This document shows, one piece after another, positions 3,788 to 40,515 of a DNA stretch of 52,135 bases. Position numbers and translations under genes: made by a program. The notes under the pieces were generated by a model. That model did not search any database and had not been told where the DNA came from. It worked only from the letters and a program-made list of their open reading frames with translations. The stretch is from positions 1 to 52,135 of IMG/VR virus record IMGVR_UViG_3300031965_000041. The stretch is one strand, 5' to 3'. The stretch is from a virus. Its lineage: Duplodnaviria; Caudoviricetes. Numbering within the stretch: the stretch's first letter is position 1; the number at the start of each line of letters is the position of its first letter.

Positions 3788-5290
3788 CTAGGCACGATCG
3801 GTCCCCGCCTGCGACTCGGGCAGCATGAGGACTTCCTGCGCGCACCGCTTTGCCGCGAGATCGCAGTACCGCTCCTCGATCTCGATCCCGATGGCGCGAC
3901 GGTTCAAATCCTTTGCGGCCCGAAGCGTGGTGCCGGACCCCATGAAGGGGTCGAGAACCGTATCGCCTTGGTCAGAGTGGAGCCGCACGAACAACGAAAA
4001 CAACCCCAATGGCTTTGGAGTTGGATGGTCCTCTGCCCTCGGCTTGATTCCCGGAATGCGGATCACGTTTGCTTGAGTATGACCACCATTCCATTTGCAG
4101 GCCGCTCCAGGCTTCTGCGCTACGAGCATCAGCTCGTAATTCCGCCGGTAATGCCACCCCATCCCCAGCCCGGTCGTCGACGACGGGGGTTGGCCGACGT
4201 GCTGTTCGACATGCTCGATGATGCTCTGCCCGATGACGCGCCCGAGGTCGACGGGAACCGCGTTGCCGATCATGCGGCCGAGCGCCTTGAACTGGAGTGT
4301 TTCGTCGTCAGGGACGAAGGAGTAGTCCTTCGGGAAGCCCTGAAGCAGCGCGCCCTCGCGCAGCGAGAGACCACGCGCCTGCGTGGGATGGCCAAAGCGA
4401 CCGTTGCCGAAGCCGTAGAACTGTGTCGTCAGCGTCGGCGCGGGCTCGTCGTACTTCATGCGGCCGTAGACGCCGGGATAGGTCTTGCCCGTCTTCTTCG
4501 TATGGCATTTGGCGATCAGGTGCTTCGGCCAGTCACGCCACGTGCCGCCCGGCTTCGAGACCTGAATGCGCTCGTAGTTCAGGTCGGAGAGGCGGGACGC
4601 GGTGTGCAGGCGATCGTCCTTGTGGGTGCCACCATGCCTGAGGATGGGGAGCCCCTTGATCACGTCCTCGACCGTCCTGGTTTCCGACGCGACGGGCTCG
4701 CGCAGCTTGATCTCGCCGTGGAGCGACGCGAGAAGCACGGTACGGTGGCGGCGCTGCGGGAGGCCGTACTTGGCGCAGTCGATGACGTCGTACCAGACCT
4801 TGTACTTGAGACGCTTCAGCGTCGCGACGAAGTCGTCGAATACCTCGTGCTTCGTCACGGTGGGGACGTTTTCCATCGTGACGATGTCAGGCATCAGCTC
4901 CTCCACCAATCGCCCGAAGTGGTTGAGCAGGCTCCACCGCTCGTCGTCCTCGACGTCCTCCTCCTTCTGGTAGCGGAGGGCGTAGTTCGAGAACGGCTGG
5001 CAGGGCGCGCAGCCGGCGAGAACGCGAACCGTCGCATCGCCGAACCAGGCATCGACCTTCGACGCCTCGAGCTTGGCGACGTCGGCTTGGTGGAACTCGA
5101 TGCCCTCGTGGTTCGCCTCGTACGGGTGCCTGCAGCCCTCGTCGAAGTCGACTCCCGCGACGACCTTCACACCGGCGTCGATGAGTCCGTGGGTGAGCCC
5201 GCCCGCGCCGCAGAACAGATCCACGCACACGACGTCCCGATCGGGCCGCTTGGTCCGTCCGTTCCTCGGTGTACGTGACTTTCTCGCCAT
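3788..5290 (-). CDS. Chimeric DNA methyltransferase: full C5-cytosine MTase (M.HgiDII-like) fused to the C-terminal half of a beta-class N4/N6 MTase
   Basis: RBS GGAGGAG before ATG 5290. C5 motifs DLFCGAGG, GCAPCQPFS, ENV, QRRHR, IGNAVP; then GLGMGWHYRRNYE, HPTPKP, VLDPFMGSGTT, GIEIEERY. Confidence 0.9.
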   Translation of the reverse strand: MARKSRTPRNGRTKRPDRDVVCVDLFCGAGGLTHGLIDAGVKVVAGVDFDEGCRHPYEANHEGIEFHQADVAKLEASKVDAWFGDATVRVLAGCAPCQPFSNYALRYQKEEDVEDDERWSLLNHFGRLVEELMPDIVTMENVPTVTKHEVFDDFVATLKRLKYKVWYDVIDCAKYGLPQRRHRTVLLASLHGEIKLREPVASETRTVEDVIKGLPILRHGGTHKDDRLHTASRLSDLNYERIQVSKPGGTWRDWPKHLIAKCHTKKTGKTYPGVYGRMKYDEPAPTLTTQFYGFGNGRFGHPTQARGLSLREGALLQGFPKDYSFVPDDETLQFKALGRMIGNAVPVDLGRVIGQSIIEHVEQHVGQPPSSTTGLGMGWHYRRNYELMLVAQKPGAACKWNGGHTQANVIRIPGIKPRAEDHPTPKPLGLFSLFVRLHSDQGDTVLDPFMGSGTTLRAAKDLNRRAIGIEIEERYCDLAAKRCAQEVLMLPESQAGTDRA

Positions 5291-5513
5291 CTCCTCCGTT
5301 ACCTCACTCTTCGTCTTGCCGTCGGTCCTCGGCGGCTTTTCCTCGACTTCATCCTTCTCCCCCAATACTGCCCCCCCGGGTGGCCCGGGGCTGATTGTCC
5401 TGCCCACCGTCCGGAGGCACGACCACTCCCCGAGAGTTTCTCGAGGACCACCCGAGGGAGGCCAGCAACAGGCGCGGCACTTCCCCCGAAGCCCACACGA
5501 ACCCGTTGCTGCG

Positions 5514-6335
5514 CTATCCTGCAGGCACCATCTCCTTGGCCACGTGCTCCTCGATCTTCTCTGCCGCGCTCTCGCCCATCTCCTTGTGGCCGCACGAGCA
5601 CTGGTACCCGGCGATCTCCTCGCCCTTGCCCTTGAGGGCCTTTGCTTTGTGCTCGACCTTCGGGGGCGCCCCTTTCGGGGTCTCCTCTTCCTCCTCCTTC
5701 TTGGTCTCTCCCGAATCACCGTTCATGGCCGCCTTCTCCTCCAGTTCGGCGGTGAGGTCCTCGGCGTCCGAGGTAGGCTGCCGCTCCAGCTTCTCGGGAT
5801 CCTCGAACTCTTCGGTGGCGTAGGTGCCCGCGAAGAAGTCTGGGGCGATCATCCGCAAACCCCTGGCCTTGCACCGCGCGGCTAACATGTCCTTCGGATA
5901 CCTCTTCCAAACCTCACCCTTCTTGGCGAGCAATCCGGCGTCCCGCGCCTCCTGGATCGTGAATTCAGCCTCGACGGGATCGAACCCTTCACGGGTGAAC
6001 AGGATCCGGCACACCGTGGACGACCATTCGAGGATCTTCTTCCGGACCCCCAGCCGCTTGGAGGCGATCCCGTCCATCAGGGCGGCCTCCAACACGAGCT
6101 TGCCGTCGAAATAGTGGATTGACGCGAATCCCTGCATGGCAGGCACCCCGAGCTCGTGCGCCTTGAGCATCATGGCGAAGGCGGCGTTGGCGTTCCGTTG
6201 CGGGATGAGACCGCTCGCCGCCAGAGCCTTGGCCATCCGCCACCGAGCATCCATCGTGGCGACCCAGGCCGCCATCGGGTCGTCCGTCGTGGAGACTTCA
6301 TTCCGGCGAGCCGGAATCACGTCGTTGTCAGTCAT
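5514..6335 (-). CDS. RecT-like single-strand annealing protein
   Basis: AMMLKAHELGVPAMQGFASIHYFDGK...FTIQEARDAGL...WKRYPKDMLAARCKARGLR; adjacent to the exonuclease. Confidence 0.8.
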   Translation of the reverse strand: MTDNDVIPARRNEVSTTDDPMAAWVATMDARWRMAKALAASGLIPQRNANAAFAMMLKAHELGVPAMQGFASIHYFDGKLVLEAALMDGIASKRLGVRKKILEWSSTVCRILFTREGFDPVEAEFTIQEARDAGLLAKKGEVWKRYPKDMLAARCKARGLRMIAPDFFAGTYATEEFEDPEKLERQPTSDAEDLTAELEEKAAMNGDSGETKKEEEEETPKGAPPKVEHKAKALKGKGEEIAGYQCSCGHKEMGESAAEKIEEHVAKEMVPAG

Positions 6336-7155
6336 AGTTCACGGTCCTTTCCGACATCTTGCGGAACGCCCAATCCGGCATCGAGATCGGGTGTACCTTG
6401 TCCTCGTAGCCGGGCCAATTCCCGGACTCCATGCATTCGGCGTACAGGCGCAGCAGGGGCCGCAGCTCCTCATCCCCCGCGGCCACGGCATCGGCCTCGA
6501 TGCGGTAGACGCCGACGCAGTAAGGGGGAACCTTCTCGGCTGCGATAATGACCAGGTGCCGCAGCCCCATACCCAGGGCGTTGGCGCCGGCCATGTAATG
6601 CGCCGCCTGTATGTAGTAGCCGAAGTTGTAGACCGACCGCTCGAACCCGGCCGGGCTGGCGTCGGTAGTCGTCTTGAGGTCCACCAGGACTCCCGACACC
6701 TCGGAGACGTGGTCGAACCGCCCTTTGCAGAGCACGCCCGTCTCCGCGTCCTTCCAGATTGCGGATCGCTCGGACTCGCCGTCGAAGAGGAGTCGGGCCA
6801 TTCGGTGATTGCGAACGGCATCGCGGATCTGCATGCACAGATCGAAGTCGGCGGGGTCCACAACCGTCTTGCCGGACTTGGCCAGCTCTTCCCGGGCTTC
6901 CTTGATCTCTTTCTTGCGCCCGTCCCCCTCGATTCCGCGGACATGGGTGGCGTCGAACCGATCCGGCTCCAGAACGGCCGTGTGTACCAGGGTCCCGAAG
7001 CGCATGGCGGGCGTCTCGAATTCATAGGGATGATCGAGCCGGTATCGCAGGTGCGCCGGGGTTTGGTCTCGCAGGATCTTGAGCGAGGACTGCGCCGCAA
7101 ACGGCAGGCGGTGGTACTTCTCGGCGGGCATGTCCTTGTAGAGTCCCGGTTTCAT
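6328..7155 (-). CDS. RecE/exonuclease VIII-like PD-(D/E)xK nuclease (DUF3799-like)
   Basis: ETPAMRFGTLVHTAVLEP, CKGRFD, VDLKTT, YYIQAAHY. Confidence 0.9.
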   Translation of the reverse strand: MKPGLYKDMPAEKYHRLPFAAQSSLKILRDQTPAHLRYRLDHPYEFETPAMRFGTLVHTAVLEPDRFDATHVRGIEGDGRKKEIKEAREELAKSGKTVVDPADFDLCMQIRDAVRNHRMARLLFDGESERSAIWKDAETGVLCKGRFDHVSEVSGVLVDLKTTTDASPAGFERSVYNFGYYIQAAHYMAGANALGMGLRHLVIIAAEKVPPYCVGVYRIEADAVAAGDEELRPLLRLYAECMESGNWPGYEDKVHPISMPDWAFRKMSERTVNYD

Positions 7156-7355
7156 GTCCACTCCCCCACAATGGCGGGCCGTTCGGACACCTTCTCCGGG
7201 AGATGAATGTCCTCGCCCGCATGGACGTGCCGGATCCAGTCGATGGTCCGGAACGCCTTGAAGCATCCGGGTTGCGGGCAGGTGTACACGACCTCGCCCC
7301 TCTGATTGCGCTCCACGCGCAATCCGTCGCTCCCGCAGGAAATGCAGCGGATCAT
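7152..7355 (-). CDS. Small zinc-finger protein
   Basis: CISC...CPQPGC...HVH. Confidence 0.55.
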   Translation of the reverse strand: MIRCISCGSDGLRVERNQRGEVVYTCPQPGCFKAFRTIDWIRHVHAGEDIHLPEKVSERPAIVGEWT

Positions 7356-7366
7356 AGGATCTCCTC

Positions 7367-7780
7367 TCACCAACAGCCCCCTTTCCGCGCCCCGCTCAGA
7401 GCGGACCGGATGTACTCGTCCGCATCCATCCGCGTAACCGGCTCGTACTGCCGGTCGCAACCCTGGGTCTGGCACATGAACTGCCCGCGGTACTCCTCGC
7501 AGGGCTGGCCGCACGAGACGCAGAGATAGATGCGCTTGGGCTCCAGGAGGTTGGCCATGTCGTCGCGGCTGTTGGCGCGGGCCTTGAATTGTTCGACGCG
7601 CTCCCGGTGCGTCTCGGTGGGGAAGATCGTGCCGACGCGACCGCCGGCGTCGATGTTGGCGCCACCCATGAGATCCCCGGTGTTGGTGTCCTCCAGGATG
7701 TAGGTGACGTGATGGGTGCGGCACAGGGAGATCCCCATGTCGCACGCGAGATCGGTAACCTCCCGCGGTAGTTTTGTCAT
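7367..7780 (-). CDS. Hypothetical zinc-ribbon protein
   Basis: ATG 7780 with a G-rich RBS; CVSC...CQTQGC. Confidence 0.6.
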   Translation of the reverse strand: MTKLPREVTDLACDMGISLCRTHHVTYILEDTNTGDLMGGANIDAGGRVGTIFPTETHRERVEQFKARANSRDDMANLLEPKRIYLCVSCGQPCEEYRGQFMCQTQGCDRQYEPVTRMDADEYIRSALSGARKGGCW

Positions 7781-7796
7781 CGTGTGACCCCCTATC

Positions 7797-7867
7797 TGGT
7801 AGCGGAACCGGGAGTCGAACCCGGCGCATTGGGGATATGCGCCCCGCGCGGTCCCGCGACTTCCGCA
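7797..7867 (-). tRNA. Non-canonical tRNA-like gene with CAT anticodon (initiator-like)
   Basis: TGCGGAA-GT-CGCG GGAC CGCG-CGGGG CGCATAT CCCCA-ATGCG-CCGGG TTCGACT CCCGG-TTCCGCT-ACCA. Perfect T arm, encoded CCA, 1:72 mismatch. Confidence 0.75.
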
Positions 7868-8106
7868 TCTATCGCGCCAGCAGCATCGCGGCCACCAGGA
7901 ACGCGAGCGGCCAGCGAAGCATCCAGACGTACCGGGCACACACGGACAGGTCCGAACGGATTTCCTGCCAGTCCATGCCCATCTCCTCGTGCAGATAGTG
8001 GCCGACGTGGGTGCGCTCCCTCCCCCGCCGGCCGGTCACGCGCGCCGCCATCTCATGCCTATGCAGATGAGGGCCACGAGCCCAATAGCAAAGATCCATT
8101 CCAGAA

Positions 8107-8403
8107 TCATGAGTGCAGCTCCCGCGTCTCGAATACGCCCCGGAGCGTCGGGTTGCGATCCATCAGCAACCGGGCGTATCGCGAGTGGTAGTTGTTGTTC
8201 AGTTTGAAATCGGGGTCCGTGGTGGTAAGCAGGTGCTCCCACCGGAGGACCTCAAAGAGCATCTTGATCGAGAGCCGTTTCCGTCCCGCAGCAACCAGCT
8301 CCAGGGCCTTCTCCCGGAGGGCCGCGTAGACGTGTGGGTTCTCGGCGTGGAACGCGTGGAACCGGTCGTCGAGGGTCTCGCGGAAGAGTGGGAGTGTGGT
8401 CAT
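8107..8403 (-). CDS. Conserved phage hypothetical protein
   Basis: FHAENPHVY...LFEVLRWE...FKLNNNYHSRYAR, a motif I recognise from many phages; function unknown. Confidence 0.7.
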   Translation of the reverse strand: MTTLPLFRETLDDRFHAFHAENPHVYAALREKALELVAAGRKRLSIKMLFEVLRWEHLLTTTDPDFKLNNNYHSRYARLLMDRNPTLRGVFETRELHS

Positions 8404-8726
8404 ATGACGATCTCCCCGATTCGTGCGGCGGCTTTGATGGTTTTGGTGCGGTAGTAGAATCGGGCGTATCGCATGGTTGCCGCGATGAACCGGCGCGTCC
8501 TCGGGTTGGTCGGATCGGACCAGTTCACCTCATGGCGCATGCGTCGTGCCGCCTCATTTGCGGACGCGGCGCGGTCCGCACATTGTTGAATGCCAGCCAT
8601 GTTCACGGCCGACTGAACAACCACTCGGTCGGCTGCTAGATAGGCGTGCGGCTCTATGCGGCGATCCTCTTCCATCGGCGGCGACGGCGGGTGCGTCTCC
8701 GACCCGCAGATGATGCAGACGGTCAC
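8400..8726 (-). CDS. Hypothetical protein
   Basis: GTG start with GAGGAGG RBS; coupled to 8403. Confidence 0.55.
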   Translation of the reverse strand: MTVCIICGSETHPPSPPMEEDRRIEPHAYLAADRVVVQSAVNMAGIQQCADRAASANEAARRMRHEVNWSDPTNPRTRRFIAATMRYARFYYRTKTIKAAARIGEIVI

Positions 8727-8789
8727 GGGGCACCTCCTCGTTGCTCTCTGAGTATCTCGGGGGTAGCCTCAGAGTCCTCTTTTCCTTGC

Positions 8790-9038
8790 TCACGACCCCA
8801 CTCCCGCGTTGAGGATCTCCACCGCCTGGCCGTCGGCGCAGGGCTCGCAGACCGCGTCGTCCGGATCCATCCGGCTCGCGCCGGTGCAGCCGGAGCACAC
8901 GAGGTCGCCGCAGTCATCGCACGGCTGCACGTCGTCGCCCCCACCGCAATGGAGGCAGTTGGGCAGCGCCGCATCGCATCGGGGACACGCCGCCCCTTCG
9001 ATGCCGGTCTCTCCGCAGTTTCCACACTCATGGATCAT
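8790..9038 (-). CDS. Cys-rich zinc-binding protein
   Basis: Six CxxC pairs in 82 aa. Confidence 0.6.
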   Translation of the reverse strand: MIHECGNCGETGIEGAACPRCDAALPNCLHCGGGDDVQPCDDCGDLVCSGCTGASRMDPDDAVCEPCADGQAVEILNAGVGS

Positions 9039-9174
9039 CGTGACCCCCCTTGGGAGGAGGTAGCGGGCATGCGGTCCGACCCGCAGGGGCCCGCCACCCC
9101 AGGAATAAGGTGCGCGACCCCGGGACTTCCCCTGCCACGGGTTCGCCCCTGTTCGTGGAGGCCGCGCGGAAAAC

Positions 9175-9441
9175 TCATGCCGCGCCCCTGTCCCTGTCCC
9201 TGTCCAACCAGCTGAGGTCGAAGAAGGACTCGGGGCGCTTCTTGAAGGCTCGACAGGCCCGGTCGATCACGGCAGCCGGTGGGCCGGAGCCGTCCCCGCG
9301 CTTGTACTTGAGGAACCCGGACACGGAGATCCCGAGCTGTGACGCCATCTCTGCGTTGGAGAGCCCCAGGGCAACCTGGAGAGCCGAGAGCCGCTCACCG
9401 AAGACCTGCGCGGCCGGGGACCGCAGTTTCGTCGTTTCCAT
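9175..9441 (-). CDS. Cro/CI-type XRE helix-turn-helix regulator
   Basis: FGERLSALQVALGLSNAEMASQLGISVSGFLKYKRG. Confidence 0.8.
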   Translation of the reverse strand: METTKLRSPAAQVFGERLSALQVALGLSNAEMASQLGISVSGFLKYKRGDGSGPPAAVIDRACRAFKKRPESFFDLSWLDRDRDRGAA

Positions 9442-9497
9442 GTGGGCCATTGTGGGGAGTTTCGTGGACAAAAGCAAGAAAAAATTTCACAAAAATA
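9442..9497 (-). promoter_or_regulatory. Sigma70-like leftward promoter, probably giving a leaderless transcript
   Basis: TTGCTT-17 nt-CACAAT-7 nt-ATG(9441), with an AT-rich upstream tract. Confidence 0.55.
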
Positions 9498-9974: not shown

Positions 9975-9998
9975 GATCTGAGGCAGGAGGATAGAGAG

Positions 9999-27304: not shown

Positions 27305-27440
27305 TCATTCCTCGCGATGGCAGCATTGGCCCACATCACCGACTCTTCCAGCTTGGTGATGGCCAAGGACTTCTCCCGGCTCTCCGGGCACAAGCTGTTG
27401 ATGAGGTCGGCGAACTCCAGAGCCTTTCGGCGTTGGTCAT
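27301..27440 (-). pseudogene. Frameshifted Acb2/Tad1-like (nucleotide-signal sponge) gene
   Basis: RBS GGAGG plus ATG 27440 (MTNAE) is out of frame with KALEFADLINSLCPESREKSLAITKLEESVMWANAAIARNE. Confidence 0.65.
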
Positions 27441-28228
27441 GGCACCCTCCTGCAAAACGCGTACATGTCCTTGCCGCGGCGCTCGGCAAGGTTCTGCCTC
27501 TGTCCCATCTCGACGGGATCCAACCCTGCCCCGCGCAAGAGTCCGGACCATCCGCCCGTCCACGTCCGCCGCGCCGAATGCACCGGCGTTGTTGCCGCCA
27601 CAGTTACCGGTAGGCGATCCAATCGCTTCGCCGCGCGGTGCAGCCCAGGATCGGAGAACCCCATCTCGAAGTCGGTGACGCGCTCCTGATTCCAGAGACT
27701 CGGACCCCGCTTGGGGATGGTGAGCACGAACACGGATCCCTCCGGGAGTAGACCGGAGATTCCCGCCAACACGCGCTGGGGCTCAGGGATGAACTGGAGC
27801 ACGTTCCGCGCTAGGATGAGGTCGTACCAGCCCACGGACTCGCGCTCGATCTTGAGCCACTCCACCAGGGCCTCCACGGTGTCCTTGATCTGGACGATCC
27901 GGGCGCCTGGGTACTGCTCCCGGCAGCGCGCGACGTGCTCCGGTAGGATCTCTACGCCAGTCATGTCCGACTCGGCCACGTGAAGTTCCCGGCGCAAAAA
28001 CTCGAACGAGTATCCGAGTCCGAAGCCGATGTCGAGGAACCGACAAGGCCGGTGCCCGTCCTCGATGTAGCGTCCGAGAAACCGGGTAACGGCGGTATGG
28101 AGCAGGTTGCCGGTGGCGACCCACTCGGAATGGGTCCAGACCTGGCGGAACTTGGCGTTGGACTGGAGCATCCCCTTCCAGGACTCCCAGGCTTCGCGGT
28201 TCGGCTGCAGGAGGTGCAGGAGGTTCAT
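27437..28228 (-). CDS. Class I SAM-dependent methyltransferase
   Basis: FLDIGFGLG, GVEI, YDLILARNVLQFI. Confidence 0.85.
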   Translation of the reverse strand: MNLLHLLQPNREAWESWKGMLQSNAKFRQVWTHSEWVATGNLLHTAVTRFLGRYIEDGHRPCRFLDIGFGLGYSFEFLRRELHVAESDMTGVEILPEHVARCREQYPGARIVQIKDTVEALVEWLKIERESVGWYDLILARNVLQFIPEPQRVLAGISGLLPEGSVFVLTIPKRGPSLWNQERVTDFEMGFSDPGLHRAAKRLDRLPVTVAATTPVHSARRTWTGGWSGLLRGAGLDPVEMGQRQNLAERRGKDMYAFCRRVP

Positions 28229-29604
28229 CGTGCCTCCACCCGGTGCCGGCTCGGGTTGATGATCGAGGTCTTCCGCTCCTCGTAGCCGCGGTGCGACCAC
28301 ATCAGATCATCCAGCCAGCCCAACTCCCGCAGCGCATCAACCACCTGCTGAAACGCCCGCTCCCAGGACCATTGCTTGTGCACGAGCGCCGATGCGCGGA
28401 GACCCATGTCCTTCACAGCCTCACGGTGCTTGTACGCGAACAGCATCCGCTCCATCAGCTCGCCGATGTCGACCTGAGCATCCTCGCCGAGATCGCTCTG
28501 CGTGGTGAGATACTCGCCAAACTCGGCGTCCACTGGGTCGGCTCCGCGACCGCACACCGGCGCGCGCCGCGCCTGTTGGTCGAAGAACGACGGCCCCATC
28601 ACGGGCGTCAATCCGAGGTAGTTCCCGTCCATCGTCTCCAGGTAGTCCATCGGCCCCGAGTACTCCGTCTGGATGGTCGGCAACCCCGTGGCCATGTGCT
28701 CCAGAGGAATCATCCCGAACCCCTCTGCCCGGTACGGATTCACGGACACGTCGGAGTTGAGGAGAATCGCCCTCATGTCGTCGGGTGAGAACTTGGCCCC
28801 GTAGGTGTCAATCAAGGTGCCGTCGAGCGGGTAGTTGCTGATCTCCCAACGCTTGTTGAATACCGTGGTCCACTTGAGGATCAGCCTGGCGTCGTCCTTG
28901 ATCTCTCCCGACTCCCGTAAGCGAAGGAACGCCTCGCGTACCAGCAGCGCCTGCTTCCGGTCGCCCTCGGAAGACCGGACGCTCCGCGCCGCAATGGCCG
29001 CTTCCGAGTAAGGATCCTTCCCCACAGCCATGAACCACGGAGGTACATTTGTACCGACCGGCACCTCCACCGCGGGGGGCACCACGGGCTCGTCCAGGGT
29101 CATCGGGTAGATGGGGCCGGGGGACATGCCCTGCCAGAGAAAGGTGAACGTATCCCTGTGGGGGCGCCAGATCGGCGGGAACGCTCCCGGGTCCACTCCG
29201 TGATGCACGACGAAGATGGGCACGGTGACGCCGTCGTCGATGAAGTTCTGCTTGCTCCACTCCGAGGTTGTGAAGCATGCATCGAATTCGTTGATGGCCT
29301 CGACCCACGACACCGGGAGGCGCGATGCCTCCCAGGTCGTGTAGACGATGGCTCGATCTGCTTGCCGTTCCCAGATGGTAGGCTCGAGGTGGCGGAACAG
29401 CGGTGCGTGGGCGACCTGCACGAAGTCGACACCCACAGGGGGCGGGCCGCAGTTGCGCACGCCCATGCCCCCTCTTCGCAGGATGGCGCACAACTGCTTG
29501 CGGACGCGGTTGTAGCCCGTGTGCTCGATGTCTGGCGGGTCCCGATAGACCCGCTTCCCATCCACCGTCTTATAGCCGCCCGTGAACCACAGCCCAAACA
29601 TCAT
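28225..29604 (-). CDS. GT-B (GT4-like) glycosyltransferase
   Basis: YTTWEASRLP, TTSEW, VVHHGVD, PYRAEGFGMIPLEHMATGLP. Confidence 0.9.
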   Translation of the reverse strand: MMFGLWFTGGYKTVDGKRVYRDPPDIEHTGYNRVRKQLCAILRRGGMGVRNCGPPPVGVDFVQVAHAPLFRHLEPTIWERQADRAIVYTTWEASRLPVSWVEAINEFDACFTTSEWSKQNFIDDGVTVPIFVVHHGVDPGAFPPIWRPHRDTFTFLWQGMSPGPIYPMTLDEPVVPPAVEVPVGTNVPPWFMAVGKDPYSEAAIAARSVRSSEGDRKQALLVREAFLRLRESGEIKDDARLILKWTTVFNKRWEISNYPLDGTLIDTYGAKFSPDDMRAILLNSDVSVNPYRAEGFGMIPLEHMATGLPTIQTEYSGPMDYLETMDGNYLGLTPVMGPSFFDQQARRAPVCGRGADPVDAEFGEYLTTQSDLGEDAQVDIGELMERMLFAYKHREAVKDMGLRASALVHKQWSWERAFQQVVDALRELGWLDDLMWSHRGYEERKTSIINPSRHRVEAR

Positions 29605-32690: not shown

Positions 32691-32708
32691 GCAATCCTCC
32701 CCACGATG

Positions 32709-32732: not shown

Positions 32733-32744
32733 TCAGGATTCTGG

Positions 32745-35700
32745 TTACTCGTCGATGGACAGATACCCGCGGGTCTCCGGGCGCACGCTCAACTGAGCCG
32801 AGCGCTGCCGGATGATGTACTGGTCGGCCATGTTGCCGTTGTACAGGGGGCCGCGGATCTGGAGCGGCACGTACACCGGATAGAACAGGGTGTCCCGCGC
32901 ACCCATGAGCATCCGGTTGTGGTTCTGGTGCTGCGAGACGAAGCTGTTCATTCCGTGGATGCGCCCCCAGGAAGCGCCACCGATGAACGCTTCGGTCCGG
33001 GAACCGGCGTTGCGGTCCACCTTCTCGCCGAACCAAGTGAACTTGTGGCGGTCGCCCAGGTTCACCAGCATCCACGACGGGGGAATGAAGCCGCGGGACT
33101 CGACCATCGCACTCGTCTGCGAGATGTAGTCGATCAGCTCCTTCTTCCAGTCGGGAGCCGAGTAGCCGGGATCGGGAGACGTGGAGTCGAACTCCATCGT
33201 GTTGATGTTCAGGAAGTCGGTCGCGTCGTTGAGCAGGTTCATCCCGCGCAGATCGATCCAATCCGCGAAGTCGCGCACGATCGTGTCCAGCACCAGCGCA
33301 GCCGCGTCGGTGCGCCCGGGGCCATGGTTGGCCAGCGACATGTTGGCGTCCTCGATGGTCCGCCACGAGATCTCCGTGTCCAGGGACAGCTCTTCGACCG
33401 TCCCCGTGCGGTAGTCCAGGTTGGCCTTCGCGCGGCCCGACACGGCGAGTTCCGAGCCGGCGTTGAGATCCGTCTCGGCGATGAGATCCAGCGCTCCCGA
33501 CGTCCATCCGGTCACCGTCACGTCCGTGATCTCTTTGATCCGCTCCCCGGTCTGAGGGAACACCCGGAAGTACTGGCCGGATGCGGTTCCGACGGGCACC
33601 GTCCGTTGGGTGGTGAGTCCCGTGGTGCCGTTTTCATTCGTGTAGGTGATCGTGCAGACGGCGTCGGCCCCACCAATCGCGGTGGTCACCTTGATCCAGG
33701 CGCGCGAGGCGTAGGTGATCGATCCCGCACCGGCCGCGAAGGCAACCGCCTGCGACACCGTGCCGTACGACTGCTCGCCGGTTCGCCGGTAGTTGTTGTA
33801 GGCGATCTTGTAGGAATCGCTCTTGCAGGGAACCAGGGTGGCGATATTCGGCCAGATCGCGGTGGCGAACAGAACCTCGAGGATCCCCTGCCGGATGTCC
33901 GGGTGGAGGGTCCCGAGGGTCGCGGCCGTGGTCATCTCGTTGGCCTCGGCCTTGAAGTCACCGCGGCAGATCGCGTTGAACCGCTTGTACGACTCCATCT
34001 GCCGGAGCTGTGAATCGTTGGTGCCTCGGTCCTGCTGATCCGACATGAAGGGGAAGCCGGCCACCCGGTTGCCCTCGGAGCCGATATGGTCCGAGTACAC
34101 CTCGGACATGACCTGCACCTTCTCCCGAAGGCCGGGGAAGCGTACATCCAGGATGTGCGCCTTCCCGCCGTAGTCGGGGTGCTCGACGTAGACCGGGCGG
34201 TTGCCCAGCCACTTCGACACCACGACGTCGGTGAGGCGAGCGCCGACCGGGCGCCCGTCGGGGTGCTTCTGGCCACGCGGCAGACCCACGCGCTCGTTGT
34301 CGGACTCGACGCAGAGGGTCTCGTAGGGCAGCGTGTTGATGTAGGGCGCCGCCTCGAGCTTCCGATCGTTCCGGCCGCCCGCGGGGTCCTTCTCCGGGAC
34401 CGTATCGGGGGGTAGCCCGGCCGCTTCCATGGCGGCGCGGCGCGCCGCCGCACGGAGACTCTCGAGCTGCTCCCGATGCTTCTTGAATGGGGCCTCCAGC
34501 TCGGAGACCAACGCCTCCTTGAAGGCGTCGCTTTCCGGGGCGAAGCCGGAGTGTTCCTTCTTCACCTTCTCGATTGCCGCCGGAGTCGCTGCGGACACGG
34601 CCTCCAGAACGGCCAGCTTGAACTCGTTGTCCTCGTCGCCGAGTTTGGCGGTGTAGGACTCCAGAGCCGCCTTGCCGGCCGACTTGTACGCCTGTTCGAC
34701 CTGGGCCGCCTTGAGGCTGTCGGCCTCCGTGGCCTTCGCCTTCATGGCTTCGAACTGCGCCTTTACCTCGGGCGACGCGTCCTTCAACAGTTCCTCGAAA
34801 CTCATCGTCTTCCCCTCTTTCCCCACTTCACTTTCCAGTTTCGGAGCCGCTTTGGACGGCCGCTCGTAGGGCGTGTTCGGCCTGTCGCAGAAGTCCGCCC
34901 CGAACCCCTGCTCCGTCTTCATGGCCTTGACGTAATCCACTCCATCGGACTCGTTGACCATTCCGTTGCGCTTGAACCCGGCCAAGGAGATGCCCTTGAC
35001 GAAGTTCGTCTCGGTAAGCAGCGCCACAAGGGCCTGCCCCCGCGGCGTCGAAAGCGTTTCGAACGTGACGCCGATGACGTCTCCGTCCTGAATGTCCCCG
35101 ATGGCCTTGCCGCCCTCGACATAGACCCCGGTAAATTTGGCGGCGATATCGCCCAAGTTGTTGAACCCGCCCGGCATGTTGAGCCGGTCGCCGTGGCTGA
35201 GGTACATGGCGCCGACGGGCCACGGGCCGGTCTCGGTCCAGGCGTCCTCGACCGACTCCACCCGCACCGCGAGCTCGTTGTAGAGAGCCTTCGCGCACTC
35301 GACGGTGTAGTTGGTGTTGGATTTCGTTGTCGCGCCGGCGATCATGAGCGGGACGCGGCCGCGGACCTTGCGTACCCCGCCGGAGTCCCGGACGGCCTCC
35401 AGCTTGGTCGGCCGCGACCAGATGCGGAGATCGCCGGGCTCCCGCTCACGGGTGTTCGCCTCGACGATGTCCGGCGCGCCCAGCTTCAGGGCCTCCACCT
35501 TCAACCCCGTGGCGTCGGCCGGCAGGCCCCGAGACTCCTTGACCACGGTGACGCGGTTGTCGCCGGCGGGGTCTCCATCCTGCGAGACGTCCACCACCTC
35601 GGTCTTGATCGCCACCTGGCGCTCGTTGAATAACTCGAATGTCGCCTTGTCACCGGTGTCCTCGATGACGGTGTAGTCGATGGCGAGGTACTTCCGTTCC

Positions 35701-35873
35701 CCGTCCATCTCGGCGCACACGACGACGTAGCTTGGGAACACTGCCATGACCCATGCATAGCCGCCCTTTTCGAGGTCCTCGTGCTGCTCGTGCAGCCACT
35801 TCTTGACCGCGTTGGAGAGGGTCTCCTCGAACTCGTTCAGGCTGCCCTTGAGAGCTTCCATCTGCGCCGTCAT
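32745..35873 (-). CDS. Fused prohead protease-scaffold-major capsid protein
   Basis: Protease-like region (TKSNTNYT, YLSHGD, TPRGQ, KGISL, ADFCDRP), helical scaffold from MSFEELL, capsid C-terminus (YPVYVPLQIRGP). Confidence 0.85.
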   Translation of the reverse strand: MTAQMEALKGSLNEFEETLSNAVKKWLHEQHEDLEKGGYAWVMAVFPSYVVVCAEMDGERKYLAIDYTVIEDTGDKATFELFNERQVAIKTEVVDVSQDGDPAGDNRVTVVKESRGLPADATGLKVEALKLGAPDIVEANTREREPGDLRIWSRPTKLEAVRDSGGVRKVRGRVPLMIAGATTKSNTNYTVECAKALYNELAVRVESVEDAWTETGPWPVGAMYLSHGDRLNMPGGFNNLGDIAAKFTGVYVEGGKAIGDIQDGDVIGVTFETLSTPRGQALVALLTETNFVKGISLAGFKRNGMVNESDGVDYVKAMKTEQGFGADFCDRPNTPYERPSKAAPKLESEVGKEGKTMSFEELLKDASPEVKAQFEAMKAKATEADSLKAAQVEQAYKSAGKAALESYTAKLGDEDNEFKLAVLEAVSAATPAAIEKVKKEHSGFAPESDAFKEALVSELEAPFKKHREQLESLRAAARRAAMEAAGLPPDTVPEKDPAGGRNDRKLEAAPYINTLPYETLCVESDNERVGLPRGQKHPDGRPVGARLTDVVVSKWLGNRPVYVEHPDYGGKAHILDVRFPGLREKVQVMSEVYSDHIGSEGNRVAGFPFMSDQQDRGTNDSQLRQMESYKRFNAICRGDFKAEANEMTTAATLGTLHPDIRQGILEVLFATAIWPNIATLVPCKSDSYKIAYNNYRRTGEQSYGTVSQAVAFAAGAGSITYASRAWIKVTTAIGGADAVCTITYTNENGTTGLTTQRTVPVGTASGQYFRVFPQTGERIKEITDVTVTGWTSGALDLIAETDLNAGSELAVSGRAKANLDYRTGTVEELSLDTEISWRTIEDANMSLANHGPGRTDAAALVLDTIVRDFADWIDLRGMNLLNDATDFLNINTMEFDSTSPDPGYSAPDWKKELIDYISQTSAMVESRGFIPPSWMLVNLGDRHKFTWFGEKVDRNAGSRTEAFIGGASWGRIHGMNSFVSQHQNHNRMLMGARDTLFYPVYVPLQIRGPLYNGNMADQYIIRQRSAQLSVRPETRGYLSIDE

Positions 35874-35888
35874 AAGTCGTTGCGCCCC

Positions 35889-36374
35889 TTAGTCGTCCGA
35901 GGGGATGAGGAGGTACCAGGAGTAGCTACTGGTATCCACGGTCGCCTTCTGATTGGTGACCACCACCTCGAGGGATACGGCGAGATTCGCGAGTGAGGTG
36001 GTCCCGTGGTTGGTCTCGGCGGCGTAGGAGGTGTCGGTGCGGGCGATGGTGCGCACGGATCCGGAAGTCTGAGCCGCAGGGACGTAGTGCGCCCAGATCT
36101 GGGTCTGGACGGTATCGCCGGTGCCGATGGAGAAGGACACCAACTGCGTGGGCAGGTTGATGTCGTTGTCCTCGTCGAGGAACGGCACGTCCCGAAGCAT
36201 GAACGAGGCGGAGTCGGCTGCGCCGTTGGTGATGCCGGTTGCGGTGATCTTCCACCGCTTCACGTCGCCGAGGTGATCGGGTGTCACGGTGACCGCGGCG
36301 AGCAGCGGCGAAATGCAGAATGCGACCGCCAAAGCGATCGCACAGACAGACAGAACGGGTCGGAAGACCTTCAT
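35889..36374 (-). CDS. Signal-peptide protein directly upstream of the capsid gene
   Basis: MKVFRPVLSVCAIALAVAFCISPLLA; GGAGGAGG RBS. Confidence 0.75.
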   Translation of the reverse strand: MKVFRPVLSVCAIALAVAFCISPLLAAVTVTPDHLGDVKRWKITATGITNGAADSASFMLRDVPFLDEDNDINLPTQLVSFSIGTGDTVQTQIWAHYVPAAQTSGSVRTIARTDTSYAAETNHGTTSLANLAVSLEVVVTNQKATVDTSSYSWYLLIPSDD

Positions 36375-36442
36375 CACTTCCCCTCCTCCACACACACACG
36401 GTCCCCACGTTCGTACTATCTAATACCAACTCCAGCGGAATT

Positions 36443-36715
36443 TTATTCCACGATTTTTTGTAGGCGGCGGACCGCCACCCCATTTCCCGTCCCGTTCCTC
36501 CCGTCACGGGCGGCCCGCCACACGACGTACACCGGTCGTTTGAAGTCTTCAGCCCGACGAAACATCGGCGTGTCGTCCTCCTCCGCCAAGGCGCGGCGGA
36601 TTGCCGCGATCTCGGCCAGAGTGCACCCCAGAGCGATCAGATCCCGGAGCGTGTACTCGATGTCCTCCTGGTCGACGTTCAGGTCGTACTCCAGGCGGAC
36701 GGCAAATCCTGTCAC
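36443..36715 (-). CDS. Hypothetical protein
   Basis: GTGA coupling. Confidence 0.5.
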   Translation of the reverse strand: MTGFAVRLEYDLNVDQEDIEYTLRDLIALGCTLAEIAAIRRALAEEDDTPMFRRAEDFKRPVYVVWRAARDGRNGTGNGVAVRRLQKIVE

Positions 36716-36927
36716 GTCAATCCGAGCTTCCCGAGGTAGTCCTGCTCCTCAGACGGCATGCAACGGATCCGCCGGCGCACAACCGGCACCTCGAGATCCA
36801 GCGCCGCGGCGATCTCGCCGACAGACTTCGCGCCCGCAACCACGGCCTCGGCATAGGCGCGGAAGTTCCCGGATCCCCAATCGGGAGCCCGGAGTCGTTT
36901 CTTGGTTCGTTTCTTGGCCTCAGCCAT
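36712..36927 (-). CDS. Small HTH-like protein
   Basis: KSVGEIAAALDLEVPVVRRRI; AGGAGG RBS. Confidence 0.55.
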   Translation of the reverse strand: MAEAKKRTKKRLRAPDWGSGNFRAYAEAVVAGAKSVGEIAAALDLEVPVVRRRIRCMPSEEQDYLGKLGLT

Positions 36928-37708
36928 GGTCTGCCTCCTGGTAAGTGAAGTCCTGTGATCCAGATACGGGGCGCACAAGCTCCATGCCCCCGTAGACCCG
37001 GCGGGACCACGCCGGGTCGCACATCCCCACATGCCCGATGTGGATCGCCCGGTTGGCCAGGCTGGATAGACACCGTAGACCGGGGTTGGCGTCCATGTAC
37101 CGCGTCATGGCATGCTCACCCACCTGACCCGTGAAGTTGGGCTCGAGATGCGTCTCCCAGGCGCCCCGGGAGTACATCATGCCCTCCATGTGGAATCGTT
37201 CCCCGGTCTGCCGGGCTGTAACGGCGTCGTCCCCTCGGCTCGTGGTGATAACCTCGGGGCGGGAGTTGTCCGGACTGTAGGTCAGCGGCCACAGTCCGAG
37301 GTAGTCGTCCCGGTCAGGCCGGCCGGCGTACCACTCCAGAAGGGCAAAGATGTCGCTGGAGAGGACAACGTCATCCGCGACTCGGAGGAACACTTCCGCC
37401 GCGCCCCTGCACGCGCTCTCCATCGTTGCGCGAATGTTCGGCACCGGACCCATCCGGTGTGTGTGGCAGTGGACGGCCAACCCGCGGTATAACCAGGCTG
37501 CATCGTTTTCCAGGCTTTCGAGCGTGCGGAGAAAGTACTCTATATCGGATTGATCCCTGCCGTAGTCGATCCCGCAGTACAGGGTCATCGGCCCGGGGTA
37601 CGGGTAGTGGGACCACGCCGTTTCTAGGCTTTCGAGCGTGCGTAGGAGATACTCTCCCCGCGGCCCCCGCGCCCGGTGGGCGGTCATGATGATCGCTGCC
37701 GGGGTCAC
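36920..37708 (-). CDS. GT-A fold glycosyltransferase-like protein
   Basis: IMTAHR..EYLLRTLESL, FLRVADDVVLSSD, NRAIHIG. Confidence 0.75.
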   Translation of the reverse strand: MTPAAIIMTAHRARGPRGEYLLRTLESLETAWSHYPYPGPMTLYCGIDYGRDQSDIEYFLRTLESLENDAAWLYRGLAVHCHTHRMGPVPNIRATMESACRGAAEVFLRVADDVVLSSDIFALLEWYAGRPDRDDYLGLWPLTYSPDNSRPEVITTSRGDDAVTARQTGERFHMEGMMYSRGAWETHLEPNFTGQVGEHAMTRYMDANPGLRCLSSLANRAIHIGHVGMCDPAWSRRVYGGMELVRPVSGSQDFTYQEADHG

Positions 37709-37899
37709 TTGGGCTCCTCGTGCTCCGGGCGATGTGCCAAAGGTGGCATCCAGTGAATGCAACGCACTCGGTTCCATGGTTCGGGAATATTCTTTTCCGT
37801 GGACAGGCGCAGTTCGGGAGTCTCCCGGTCTCTCTCTCGGCGCCGGCGTTCGGCCTCCTCCAGTTTGCACATGGCGAAGTATCGAGCGTCGAGCTTCAC
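37705..37899 (-). CDS. Small hypothetical protein
   Basis: GTGA-coupled at both ends. Confidence 0.45.
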   Translation of the reverse strand: MKLDARYFAMCKLEEAERRRRERDRETPELRLSTEKNIPEPWNRVRCIHWMPPLAHRPEHEEPK

Positions 37900-39041
37900 G
37901 AACCACCTCCCAGGCCGAAGATCGTTTCCCCGTTTGCCTCCACCACCTCCCGGAACGCAGCCACTCCGCGCTCCAGCGACAGGCTCCCCAGCAGCGCCGG
38001 ACTCCCGACCGCGTCGCCGCGCAGCTCCATCAGGGCCGCAAACTGGCCCGGGGGCATGAGCACGGACGTCGTGTAGCACAGGTCCTGGGGGTGCCCCGGG
38101 GGAAGCTGATCCGGCGGATAGACGCCCGCACCGAGTTCGTAGTCGTCGGTGGAGGACCACACGTCACACACGTCTTCGAACGGGTGGCTATTACTCAGAT
38201 TCCACTGCATCCCATTCACCACAGGGAACGGCACCAATCGCTGAAGGCCCATGACGTTGATCTGGTGCGCGGCCTTCTGGGCGTGGAAGATCTCCGTCCT
38301 CGCCACCCGGAGATGCGTGTAGCTCGTGGTGTTGCGCGCCGAGTAGACACCTGCCCTGCGACTGCGCGAGATCCGATTCCTCAGCCGTCGCGGAGCGTTG
38401 GCCCGGTTCCATTCGCGGAGCGTGTCCTCCTGGGGCACGAGTACGTGCTCCAGGTCCTTGGCGATGTCCACAACGTCGTCACCCCGCAGCAGCCCCGTTC
38501 TCACGATGCCGGACACCTGGGAGTTGGCGAGCTGAGCGTTCGTCCACACCGCCTGGGACAGCTCCAACCCGCTCCCGAGGGTGGTCTGCATGAGGTTCTC
38601 CGCCACCACCTTGCCGACGTAGTGGACGGGCACGGCATTGAACAGCGCGGTCTGGACCTTCCTTGGCAAGTCCGAGGCAACGGCCTTGAGCAGCTCGCGT
38701 TCCCGAAGCATGGTCAGTTCGGCCGAGTCCACCAGGGACGTCTGCATGTATCCCTGGAACGCCCGGGCGAGATCGGTCGTGGCCGATGCGATGATCTGGG
38801 CAATCTCCGCATCGGTAACGGCCGGGTTGGCAAACACGCCGGCCGCGGTGAGTTCGCCCACAACGGCCTTGTGGTACGTCGCGAGGATCCGGACCAGGTC
38901 CTCGGAGGCGTGCCGGTTGAGCAAGAGGAACTGCTCCCGGAAGTCGTCGATGATGGCGTCGGTGCGCTCCGTGAAGGTCCGTTTCTTGCGGGTCTCTTCG
39001 AGGTGCAGGCGCGACGCCTCAATGTCAGCCACCCAGGTCAT
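37896..39041 (-). CDS. MuF-like minor head protein
   Basis: RVARTEI, WNLSNSHP..DVCD, PPGHPQDLC. Confidence 0.8.
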   Translation of the reverse strand: MTWVADIEASRLHLEETRKKRTFTERTDAIIDDFREQFLLLNRHASEDLVRILATYHKAVVGELTAAGVFANPAVTDAEIAQIIASATTDLARAFQGYMQTSLVDSAELTMLRERELLKAVASDLPRKVQTALFNAVPVHYVGKVVAENLMQTTLGSGLELSQAVWTNAQLANSQVSGIVRTGLLRGDDVVDIAKDLEHVLVPQEDTLREWNRANAPRRLRNRISRSRRAGVYSARNTTSYTHLRVARTEIFHAQKAAHQINVMGLQRLVPFPVVNGMQWNLSNSHPFEDVCDVWSSTDDYELGAGVYPPDQLPPGHPQDLCYTTSVLMPPGQFAALMELRGDAVGSPALLGSLSLERGVAAFREVVEANGETIFGLGGGS

Positions 39042-39802
39042 GTACCCCACCCAACACGAGCTTCTTGCGCCGCCAGAACGGCCGCATCCCACCCAACCCT
39101 AGCTTCTTGCGCCGCCAACACGGCCGCATCGTATTGCCCTAGTATGGCGGTAGCATCGGTATCCCACAGGCGCACCCACTCCATGTCCTGCTGGCCCAGC
39201 ATCGGTCCGAACTCCACCCCGCAGTTGCGGCAGAACTTGTCCTCCGCGTCCACGATGGTGCCGCATCCTCCCGGTGCCGCCGTGGCGGTTAGGGACTCAA
39301 GGTCGAGGTGCCGCGCAACACCGAAATCGATGAGCCAGAACTCATCTTGCAGGTCCACGATGATGTTCGCGGGCTTCACGTCGCGGTGAACGATGCTCAC
39401 GGCTTCGGCAGCGACCAAGGTCTCGGAGACGTGCAGCGCAAGTCGCAGGAGTTCATGGTGCGAGAGCGTGCCAGCTTGGATTCGAGCGCTCAAGACCTCG
39501 CTGGGGATCCGCTGCTCACGAAACCAGACGATCGTCCCGGTGTTGCCGGTGAGCTGCCCGCGCTCGAAGATGCGCGGCATCCGTGCAGCCCGGACCTTCG
39601 TCGCTGCCTCCAGCTCCCTCTCTGTTCGCGCCGGATCTGTCCCCGGGTGCATCAGCTTGACGACGACCTCGCCGTCAGTCGCGTGCCTCGCGGCGAAGAC
39701 CTGCTTCTGACCTCCCGACGCAAGCGCCTGGAGGTCAGTGAGGTCCGGCAACTGGCGTGCGAGCCAGACGGGGTCTACTTGGGAGTAGCTGGGCATCGCC
39801 AC
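39038..39802 (-). CDS. Truncated Hanks-type Ser/Thr kinase fused to a phage zinc-ribbon protein C-terminus
   Basis: ASGGQKQV, VVVK, HRDVKPAN and DFG are present; APE and the C-lobe are replaced by CGTIVDAEDKFCRNCG. Confidence 0.85.
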   Translation of the reverse strand: MAMPSYSQVDPVWLARQLPDLTDLQALASGGQKQVFAARHATDGEVVVKLMHPGTDPARTERELEAATKVRAARMPRIFERGQLTGNTGTIVWFREQRIPSEVLSARIQAGTLSHHELLRLALHVSETLVAAEAVSIVHRDVKPANIIVDLQDEFWLIDFGVARHLDLESLTATAAPGGCGTIVDAEDKFCRNCGVEFGPMLGQQDMEWVRLWDTDATAILGQYDAAVLAAQEARVGWDAAVLAAQEARVGWGT

Positions 39803-40515
39803 GATCCTTGCTCACTTGGGTTCTTCGAGGCGCGCCATGCCAGGTCATTTACGACCCACGAGGCGTACGAGCGCGGCAGGCGGGCGGTGGACGCGTCCCA
39901 CTCCCTAATCCCATCTTGCTCCGGGGAGAGCACCCCAATGCCGAATCGTCGCGCATCCCGCACTTGATTCTCGGAAACCTGAGGCACGAGGACGTAGGAC
40001 TTCGATGCGAACCAGGTGTTCAGCCGTGCCTGGTTGAGCACCTTGGTCCACTTTCCGATCTTGGCCTCGACGGCAATGATCTTGGTGGCCGCGAAGGCGC
40101 GCTCGAAGGCACACGGGAACCACGCGCGACCGGCCGGTCGAACGAGCCCGGCGTCGTGCAGGCGTTCGGTCGAGGATCGCGCGAAGCGGGAGCCAAAACA
40201 GCCCTCAAGTTCGGAGTGGGCGGCTCTACGACGCTGGAAGACGTAGTGCATGAGCCGCAAGTCGTCCGGTACGAGCGCCAGACGCGATTCGCCCCAGTCG
40301 GCGGTGCGAGCGTCGCGCCACACAACGATGACGAGATCGGGGAACCCGGTCTCAAGGCCGGGCTCGCGGAGCACCGTTACCCGACTGTCCGGGGCATGGA
40401 CGAGTGGCATGGCGGGGATGAACCGCTCCACGAGTTCCAGTTCGGGCCCCGGCAGAGTTCTTCGAAAGACGACACCCTCCGGCGCCGAGTCCCGGTCAAC
40501 GATCGTCGGGGTCAC
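39775..40515 (-). CDS. PD-(D/E)xK nuclease-fold protein (MmcB/sce7726-like)
   Basis: GFPDLV...IAVEAK...LNQARLN...SYV...FGIGVL. Confidence 0.75.
   Translation of the reverse strand: MTPTIVDRDSAPEGVVFRRTLPGPELELVERFIPAMPLVHAPDSRVTVLREPGLETGFPDLVIVVWRDARTADWGESRLALVPDDLRLMHYVFQRRRAAHSELEGCFGSRFARSSTERLHDAGLVRPAGRAWFPCAFERAFAATKIIAVEAKIGKWTKVLNQARLNTWFASKSYVLVPQVSENQVRDARRFGIGVLSPEQDGIREWDASTARLPRSYASWVVNDLAWRASKNPSEQGSWRCPATPK

Follow-up and report, generated by a model that had tools for sequence, protein, structure and literature searches.

How do genes from bacterial defence islands come to lie within the operons of a phage, and in frame with the phage's own genes? The question is raised by an uncultured phage from soil and sediment, represented by IMG/VR record IMGVR_UViG_3300031965_000041 (Duplodnaviria; Caudoviricetes), the whole of which (52,135 nt) was analysed and is here called the window. 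A first-pass annotation of this sequence had proposed that two segments of ~1.2 kb carrying defence-type genes each entered directly after a phage start codon and left in frame into the same gene, and had attributed them to capture by the phage's RecE/RecT-like recombinases, possibly from one donor island. Our analysis makes it likely that the window carries two separate and recent replacement insertions of ~1.2 kb of bacterial defence-island DNA, that these were joined illegitimately, and that the survivors were events that kept translation unbroken. At site 1 a cytosine methylase related to those of DISARM systems reads into what is left of a beta-class methylase gene, and at site 2 a nuclease-kinase cassette lies between the portal gene and the gene for a MuF-like head protein.

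Site 1 is made up of the following features, in which ORF stands for open reading frame.

3788..5290, minus strand: fusion ORF, 500 aa, in which a DrmMII-like C5 cytosine methylase (residues ~1-373) is followed by 127 residues from the C-terminus of a beta-class N6/N4 methylase
4174..5343, minus strand: insert 1, 1170 nt, with limits from blastn against 85 loci and from alignments
3788..4173, minus strand: remnant of the resident beta-class methylase, 127 codons, 80-84% identical to intact relatives of ~250 aa
5299..5352, minus strand: proposed relic start and leader ORF of 17 codons, with ATG at 5352-5350, then AAG, and a GGAG-type ribosome site

The fusion ORF, whose 500 residues are counted from the ATG used by its relatives, matches two methylase families in succession. 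Its first part gives a full match to PF00145 (profile 3-323/324, E 1.6e-53), scores 122.8 bits with TIGR00675 against a cut-off of 100.65, and has DrmMII as its best match in PADLOC (E 6e-91). The translation contains DLFCGAGG, APCQPF, MENVP, QRRHR and GNAVP, which we take to be the FxGxG, PCQ, ENV, QxRxR and GNAVP motifs of C5 methylases; as all motifs are present, this enzyme is probably active. The C-terminal part matches PF01555 over profile positions 159-221/221 only (E 2.2e-23). It retains the half that binds S-adenosylmethionine (DPFMGSGTT) and lacks the DPPY half. The 'LTDPPYGH' region of its relatives has no counterpart, and in the alignment homology to them starts exactly at GLGMGWHYRR, with the ~130 preceding residues, DPPY included, absent. 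A search with the 127-residue tail returned 7,372 relatives; among the best 120 of these, 119 are stand-alone proteins of 227-316 aa that match PF01555 only and are at most 84% identical to the tail, and PF00145 was found in just one, the window's own protein. Judged from its sequence, the resident piece is a dead remnant.

The limits of insert 1 were set by comparison with the relatives of each partner. Nucleotide similarity to 85 loci with stand-alone C5 methylases spans 5343 to 4174, with six of these loci extending to 5341-5343 and the loci L167 and L171 stopping at 4174, and similarity to intact beta-class methylases begins at 4172/4171. Donor-type C5 methylases end '...HVGQPPSSTT-QRRGRNGRKHT...', and because the window departs from them after SSTT, the phage copy is missing its last ~17 codons. 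In addition to this shortened gene, the insert contains the last ~13 codons and the stop of a donor HTH_17 (excisionase-like) gene, together with the donor's ribosome site. The first-pass annotation had placed the segment at 4172-5346, within 3 nt of these ends. At the right junction at most 2 nt can be attributed to both partners, and at the left there is an imperfect match, ~9/12, between GAAGTCGAGGAA and the donor's GAGGTCGACGAG. The tetranucleotide distance of insert 1 lies within the top 1% of windows.

The likely source of this segment can be read from its close relatives. Members of the 90%-identity cluster of the C5 part are stand-alone methylases of 362-460 aa, one of which occurs on 13 contigs, the longest of 150,197 nt. 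At a donor-like locus an HTH_17 gene comes first, followed in order by the C5 methylase, Vsr and two large proteins. The first of these, of 1,106 aa, matches DrmD (and a DrmA-named model), and the second, of 1,388 aa, matches DrmMI, in each case end to end with E = 0. Since the donor loci are DrmD/DrmMI operons and the best match of the C5 part is DrmMII, the phage appears to have taken from a DISARM-type island its cytosine methylase alone; a Pfam scan for DISARM partners found no helicase, DUF1998 or PLD family in the 56 ORFs of the window. An integrase adjoins one donor-like C5 locus and, given this and the excisionase-like gene, the donor-like loci may themselves be mobile.

The ATG at 5352-5350 opens the leader ORF, whose TAA (5301-5299) lies 8 nt ahead of the ATG of the C5 methylase. 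Among the beta-methylase relatives listed, 7 of 13 open with [A/G]TG-AA[A/G]-CC (M/V-K-P-Y-Y). From 6 nt and the ribosome site, we infer that this ATG was the original start of the resident beta-class methylase, and to that extent it is plausible that insert 1 entered directly behind a phage start codon (relic ATG-AAG, as in the MK start of the family).

The same beta-class methylase was also seen in other viral contigs. In L116 (5992-6426) and L117 it matches over residues 3-102 only, and the ORF of L116 passes into unrelated sequence after '...IKPG'; the gene is therefore disrupted in other phages too. In the alignment of the family (P0125-P0169), a Cys run followed by a Gly run (CCCCC-GGGGG) lies just ahead of the break point of L116, and in P0125 the HYRRNYE...KPGAA segment is duplicated internally. 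The beta-methylase gene may be a hotspot on account of such repeat-prone DNA.

Site 2, with two ORFs, lies between the portal and MuF genes, and its features are these.

40512..41978, minus strand: portal gene, 488 aa, matching phrog_9232/19480, with the exact protein on record as P0429
39254..40522, minus strand: insert 2, 1269 nt, containing 8 nt from upstream of the donor genes, the complete nuclease gene and a kinase gene that breaks off 18 residues past DFG
39775..40515, minus strand: captured 246-aa protein with a predicted restriction-endonuclease-like (PD-(D/E)xK) fold and an inserted winged helix
39038..39802, minus strand: kinase-tail fusion ORF, with the kinase N-lobe, catalytic loop and DFG joined to the resident tail; likely start at ATG 39796
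39038..39253, minus strand: resident tail, 72 codons, with a partial zinc ribbon that lacks the first Cys pair and a 14-residue unit present twice
39046..39130, minus strand: 42-nt tandem duplication found by TRF, its units differing at 4 nt
37896..39041, minus strand: MuF-like head morphogenesis gene, 381 aa, phrog_1657 E 6.6e-34, start ATG 39041

The limits of insert 2 were read from Logan contigs aligned to the window, which came from sequencing runs denoted X3, X8, X10 and X13. A donor-type contig from X3 matches the window from 39848 down to 39253 without a difference and then has 98 unlike letters, and a donor-type contig matches from 39863 up to 40523 with 1 difference before 85 unlike letters, so that the X3 matches to the insert differ from it at 0-1 positions over 596-661 nt. 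Because X3 contigs break at 40523 and 39253, insert 2 is 40522..39254, each end ~13 nt from the 39266-40510 given in the first-pass annotation. A portal contig from the same run matches from 41108 down to 40523 without a difference and continues with 127 letters unlike the window; as it diverges at this point, a form of the phage without insert 2 at 40523 exists. X3 contigs give no cover at 38608-39210. Since no joint of the portal contig to the tail was seen, the entry of insert 2 probably removed ~100 nt or more of resident DNA. At the left junction of site 2 the donor-type and phage-type contigs have 1 nt in common.

The last three codons of the portal gene and its TGA (40523-40512) lie within donor-derived DNA, and this TGA overlaps the GTG of the nuclease gene (GTGA). 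Donor-type nuclease proteins are called 13 codons longer ('...NVNST-VTPTIVD') and the window reads '...ERDST-VTPTIVD' in the same frame; many members of the family begin exactly at the window's GTG (40515). Because this GTG is the captured gene's own, and donor similarity begins 8 nt upstream in the last codons of the portal gene, entry after a phage start codon, while plausible at site 1, is wrong for site 2.

The captured nuclease gene is intact, and its product is 100% identical across all residues to the donor-type protein P0412. This 246-aa protein had no family match in the libraries scanned (0 hits in Pfam, PHROG and PADLOC) and has 665 relatives. Across 80 sequences of the family E25, P59-D60, E150 and Q162 are invariant and K152 is present in at least 90%, and the protein carries the acidic and lysine residues of the PD-(D/E)xK motif. 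A structural model with a predicted local distance difference test (pLDDT) score of 93.6 sets a winged helix within a restriction-endonuclease-like core. VIA-align of this model gave 3dnx (Z 9.8, 131 aligned, root-mean-square deviation 3.9), PaqCI (Z 9.2) and NucS (Z 8.2), amid many winged-helix matches of equal Z, and Foldseek gave no match at E <= 0.001. The nuclease was not found in searches of plasmids, phages and five genomes reached via the loci.

The kinase that follows was cut 18 residues past DFG. The fusion matches the Pkinase profile of Pfam over positions 4-152/263 and the PD-T4-6 model of PADLOC over 15-175/311 (E 2.5e-23), and homology stops after '...APGGCGTI', where relatives go on 'GYAPAEQ...' and the window reads 'VDAEDKFCRNCG...'. 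The C-lobe, which makes up the ~100 C-terminal residues of relatives, is absent, and the truncated kinase is for this reason probably dead. Relatives (165 at E <= 0.001) are 285-299 aa long. The best of them, P0005, is 94% identical and full-length, and matches PD-T4-6 models over profile positions 15-272/292 (E 3.7e-40). The donor nuclease and kinase have their longest contigs in common (P0411 and P0005, 615,265 nt; P0420 and P0009, 54,818 nt), and in all three distant members of the nuclease family that turned up in 401 genomes of one phylum, the nuclease gene is followed by a full-length small kinase. A scan of genome contigs with generic kinase motifs returned only relatives at 28-46%. Together with the DrmMII match and the DISARM genes of the donor loci at site 1, these PD-T4-6 matches bear out the defence-type content ascribed to both segments.

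From its point of truncation the kinase frame runs on through the 72 codons of the resident tail, as the C5 methylase runs into the beta-class remnant in a single ORF, and the in-frame exit described for both sites therefore holds. The tail matches Zn_ribbon_3 over profile positions 8-25/26 at an E of 1.8e-4, below the Pfam cut-off. The differences between the two units of the 42-nt duplication are all synonymous in the frame of the tail (GTG/GTT, TTG/CTG, AGG/CGT), and its TGA overlaps the ATG of the MuF gene at 39041 (ATGA). The MuF protein is on record in its exact 381-aa form, along with 99% variants. The synonymous differences and the overlap with the start of an on-record protein support the tail as a real coding frame.

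Taken together, the intact donor genes, which have 90-100% protein identity and lie on contigs as long as 150-615 kb, and the truncated, fused state of the phage copies support the view that each segment was recently imported from the genes of bacterial defence islands and would be expressed from phage signals; the captured ORFs are translationally continuous with phage ORFs, in agreement with the proposal that host genes were taken up under existing expression signals. At site 2 the chain runs from the overlap of portal stop and nuclease start, through an overlap of 22 nt between the nuclease gene and the kinase start, and along the kinase frame into the tail, to the overlap of tail stop and MuF start. 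At site 1 it runs from the stop of the leader ORF, across a gap of 8 nt, to the C5 start and along the C5 frame into the old methylase. The feature common to both sites is unbroken translation, not entry after a phage start codon.

We also noted that some donor-type genes (P0413, P0414 and P0396) are called as fusions to an upstream helix-turn-helix protein, XRE-type before the nuclease and excisionase-type before the C5 methylase. These fusions suggest that each donor gene lies downstream of a small regulator in a mobile island.

How might such joins have arisen? At site 1, a fragment of a DISARM-type island would have been joined a few bases into the phage's beta-class methylase gene, displacing ~385 nt (~130 N-terminal codons) of it, so that the frame of a C5 methylase complete in its motifs now continues into the dead C-terminal half of the old enzyme. 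At site 2, the nuclease-kinase cassette would have been joined at the end of the portal gene, displacing ~100 nt or more of resident DNA; the portal would now stop inside the insert, and the cut kinase would read in frame into a resident ORF that overlaps the MuF start. The joining may have been illegitimate, with 0-2 nt of microhomology, through break repair with a captured host fragment or through template switching. There were probably many capture events, of which the two survivors are those that let ribosomes pass along a tightly coupled operon with no break in translation; we infer that survivors were selected against polarity.

As the first-pass annotation had found, the window holds no sign of a mobile element: no transposase or integrase was present in the 56 ORFs scanned with Pfam, and terminal inverted repeats or a target-site duplication did not rise above chance, the longest shared words being 6-8 nt and equalled by 69-292 of 300 random pairs. 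Of the small indel scars that the first-pass annotation described as scattered through the genome, only small tandem duplications were seen, by TRF. The little microhomology, the loss of resident DNA and the absence of a transposase and of end repeats together argue for illegitimate joining and not for annealing by RecT.

Capture by the phage's own RecE/RecT system, through annealing of short or diverged homologies between phage and host and possibly from a single host island, is nevertheless the alternative that the genome itself brings to mind, since RecE- and RecT-like genes are present, as first annotated, and the relic ATG of site 1 lies 161 nt after the stop of the RecT-like gene. The ~9/12 match at the left junction of site 1 would suit it, and a passage of PMC3029335 allows that phage recombinases may facilitate such events. 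We regard it as unlikely, because the other measurable junctions have at most 2 nt (site 1, right) or 1 nt (site 2, left) in common, and because both sites have lost resident DNA, a loss that annealing at two short homologies would not call for. As for a single island, neither the nuclease nor a close relative of the kinase was encoded within any of the 85 C5-methylase loci, whose flanks extend to at most 10 kb. This negative is weak evidence, the loci being relatives at 55-87% and many of them short, and one island is unsupported rather than excluded. The idea that the fusions are old, functional multi-domain proteins and not the scars of insertion can point to the existence of multi-domain phage methylases (the phrog_116 profile has 779 positions), to the open frames at both sites and to the 80-84% identity of the remnant to intact relatives. 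It is nonetheless very improbable given that PF00145 occurs in only 1 of the best 120 relatives of the tail, the window's own, that the remnant is without DPPY and the kinase without the C-lobe of its 285-299-aa relatives, and that donor similarity also covers non-coding DNA and DNA of the upstream gene.

An assembly chimera of phage and bacterial reads, which the first-pass annotation had itself named as a way in which its proposal could fail, might be thought of because donors and phage occur in the same samples (X3), a setting in which chimeras can arise. Yet the same junctions recur in the JGI, ENA and Logan assemblies: both fusions lie on one ENA contig of 46,070 nt, and the fusion proteins are also found on a Logan contig of 5,515 nt and on JGI contigs of 1,984, 1,818 and 1,299 nt. 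Moreover, contig 29 of X8, which is a soil run of 2025 that belongs to another study, spans the right junction of site 2 at 39253 with 75 nt to either side and no difference, and the fused frames are open at both pairs of junctions. With the same fusions in several independent assemblies, a chimera is hardly credible. Transfer in the reverse direction, from phage to bacteria, has in its favour the excisionase-like gene and integrase of the donor-like loci, which are perhaps mobile themselves, but is just as hard to credit. It is the phage that carries the truncated copies and that retains a 13-codon stump of the donor's upstream gene, while the intact copies lie in complete DISARM operons and have many phyla-wide relatives.

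There are also points that weigh against replacement by illegitimate joining with survivors selected for translation. The relic start at site 1 is supported by only 6 nt plus a ribosome site, and, no insert-free relative having been read, the extent of the resident DNA that was lost and the microhomology that three of the junctions truly had are deduced. The junctions are supported by assembled contigs and not by read depth. Of the compositional measures, tetranucleotide use sets off insert 1 only, and GC content marks neither insert. Two in-frame exits would occur by chance one time in nine, which leaves selection for frame unproven. Finally, a search of proteins of 41-132 aa gave no homologue of the resident tail of site 2, the tail's zinc-ribbon match falls under Pfam's cut-off, and the tail could be the former C-terminal part of the portal and not a separate gene.

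Replacement by illegitimate joining, which we continue to favour, would have taken place on a phage backbone that has no close cultured relative. The record is of class linear with a CheckV completeness of 57, its G+C content is 63-64%, and the majority of its genes lie on the minus strand. The backbone includes genes for a gpA-type large terminase, the portal (start at ATG 41978, in an ATGA overlap with the terminase gene), the MuF-like head protein, a tape-measure protein, tail proteins and the two recombination proteins:

6328..7266, minus strand: RecE-like exonuclease (DUF3799 / exonuclease VIII), Pfam PF12684 E 2.1e-34, phrog_412 E 1.1e-93
5514..6335, minus strand: RecT-like single-strand annealing protein, phrog_561 E 1.4e-22, Pfam RecT 0.0044, below cut-off

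The cluster of the RecT-like protein has three members, all 100% identical, and the closest relatives of the terminase are 22-25% identical. Megablast with both insert regions and tblastn with the portal ORF against 50,697 phage records gave zero matches. Scans of IMG/VR with protein patterns for RecT, portal, nuclease and MuF yielded no insert-free relative, and a search with a 27-nt flank pattern gave 0 matches. None of 80 viral loci with an intact beta-methylase has more than one neighbouring gene in common with the window.

Other features of the window were recorded in passing. A 60-nt tandem repeat is found at both ends of the record (1-235 and 51740-52129; 3.9 and 6.5 copies, 91-93% matches). 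With one and the same repeat at both ends, the genome is probably circular or complete, with its assembly broken inside a repeat-bearing gene, despite the completeness estimate of 57%. Within the tail and structural block, 27437-29604 on the minus strand encodes a SAM-methyltransferase (Methyltransf_11, E 9.4e-9) and a GT4 glycosyltransferase (also matching 'GT4-conflict'), which may be another accessory module. A 1,042-aa ORF at 32745-35873, also on the minus strand, has the strongest coding signal of the window (GC3, the G+C content at third codon positions, 0.89) and matches nothing in Pfam or PHROG. The minus strand at 1393-2099, some 1.7 kb downstream of site 1, encodes an HNH endonuclease (PF01844, E 1.2e-4) together with a DnaA-C-like helix-turn-helix protein (PF08299, E 1e-8), neither of which adjoins a junction. 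In runs X10 and X13, one contig form of the portal gene has 38 other letters in place of ~300 nt at 41439-41742, and may be a portal variant or a relative.

The type of event described here, the pick-up of host genes without homology, is already known; it is for its resolution and its link to DISARM that this pair is useful as a case study. A part of PMC3029335 favours illegitimate recombination as the source of the mosaic junctions of phages (the Hendrix/Hatfull model), and the model set out there agrees with our sites in the lack of homology at junctions, the lack of mobile-element machinery and the preservation of gene function. By comparison with that part of the model, the junctions here fall inside genes and not at gene boundaries, the partner is bacterial defence-island DNA, and the donor, the recombinant and a probable pre-insertion form can all be seen at ~100% identity.

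Further known systems are instructive by likeness and by difference. Morons are extra phage genes that lie between genes and have their own promoter and terminator. Our inserts resemble them as accessory, host-like genes on a conserved phage backbone, and differ from them in that both lie inside coding sequence, take the place of a resident gene's 5' part and are read within the operon. With the orphan methylases that phages use against restriction and with DrmMII of DISARM, the site 1 enzyme has in common a full, DrmMII-like C5 methylase and donor-like loci that are DISARM operons, but no other DISARM gene was found in the phage and its methylase carries a dead 127-residue remnant. The donor kinase P0005 matches the Ser/Thr kinase models of PD-T4-6 end to end; its family is, in contrast to PD-T4-6, paired with a nuclease gene that is not in PADLOC, and the phage copy covers profile positions 15-175 only. 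Recombination of the RecET/Red type reportedly operates between diverged sequences, a finding said to be that of De Paepe et al. 2014. The phage encodes enzymes of this type, but the stretches of homology that they need are not seen at the measurable junctions.

What the captured genes do for the phage is suggested most readily by the methylase. A passage of a study of Class 1 DISARM (bioRxiv 10.1101/2021.12.28.474362) reports that methylation by DrmMI and DrmMII raised plasmid entry 134- and 82-fold, and calls it 'an off switch for DISARM'. Since, on that account, DISARM methylation raised plasmid entry, a counter-defence role of the DrmMII-like enzyme is plausible, and by analogy the captured methylase would mark phage DNA as 'self' against a host DISARM or restriction system. 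The genes that were first annotated as defence genes are thus possibly better read as counter-defence, at least for the methylase. A bolder proposal is that the shared geometry is a selected rule, in which the upstream ORF ends at the captured start and the captured frame flows into a resident ORF with a stop-start overlap, and that stolen and partly truncated pieces of the host's own defence islands may serve counter-defence, as a self-marking methylase against DISARM and as a decoy of nuclease and half-kinase for the host's nuclease-kinase system. We put this forward tentatively and doubt that it will hold in full.

Phage mosaicism is thought to come from rare illegitimate joins filtered by selection, and fresh events in which both donor and product are visible are seldom caught. 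If our reading is correct, run X3, in which donor, pre-insertion phage and insert sequence seem to occur together at ~100% identity, would make such an event datable and open to reconstruction from natural samples. The two joins, which lie inside genes, would be resolved almost to the base, prior to their tidying by later evolution, and would give a picture of survivable capture in which resident DNA is lost, donor genes are truncated and translation stays unbroken. For the biology of phages and their hosts, site 1 would offer a concrete candidate for escape from DISARM by means of a stolen methylase, and site 2 a pair of nuclease and kinase genes, so far undescribed and found widely in bacteria, as a candidate defence system.

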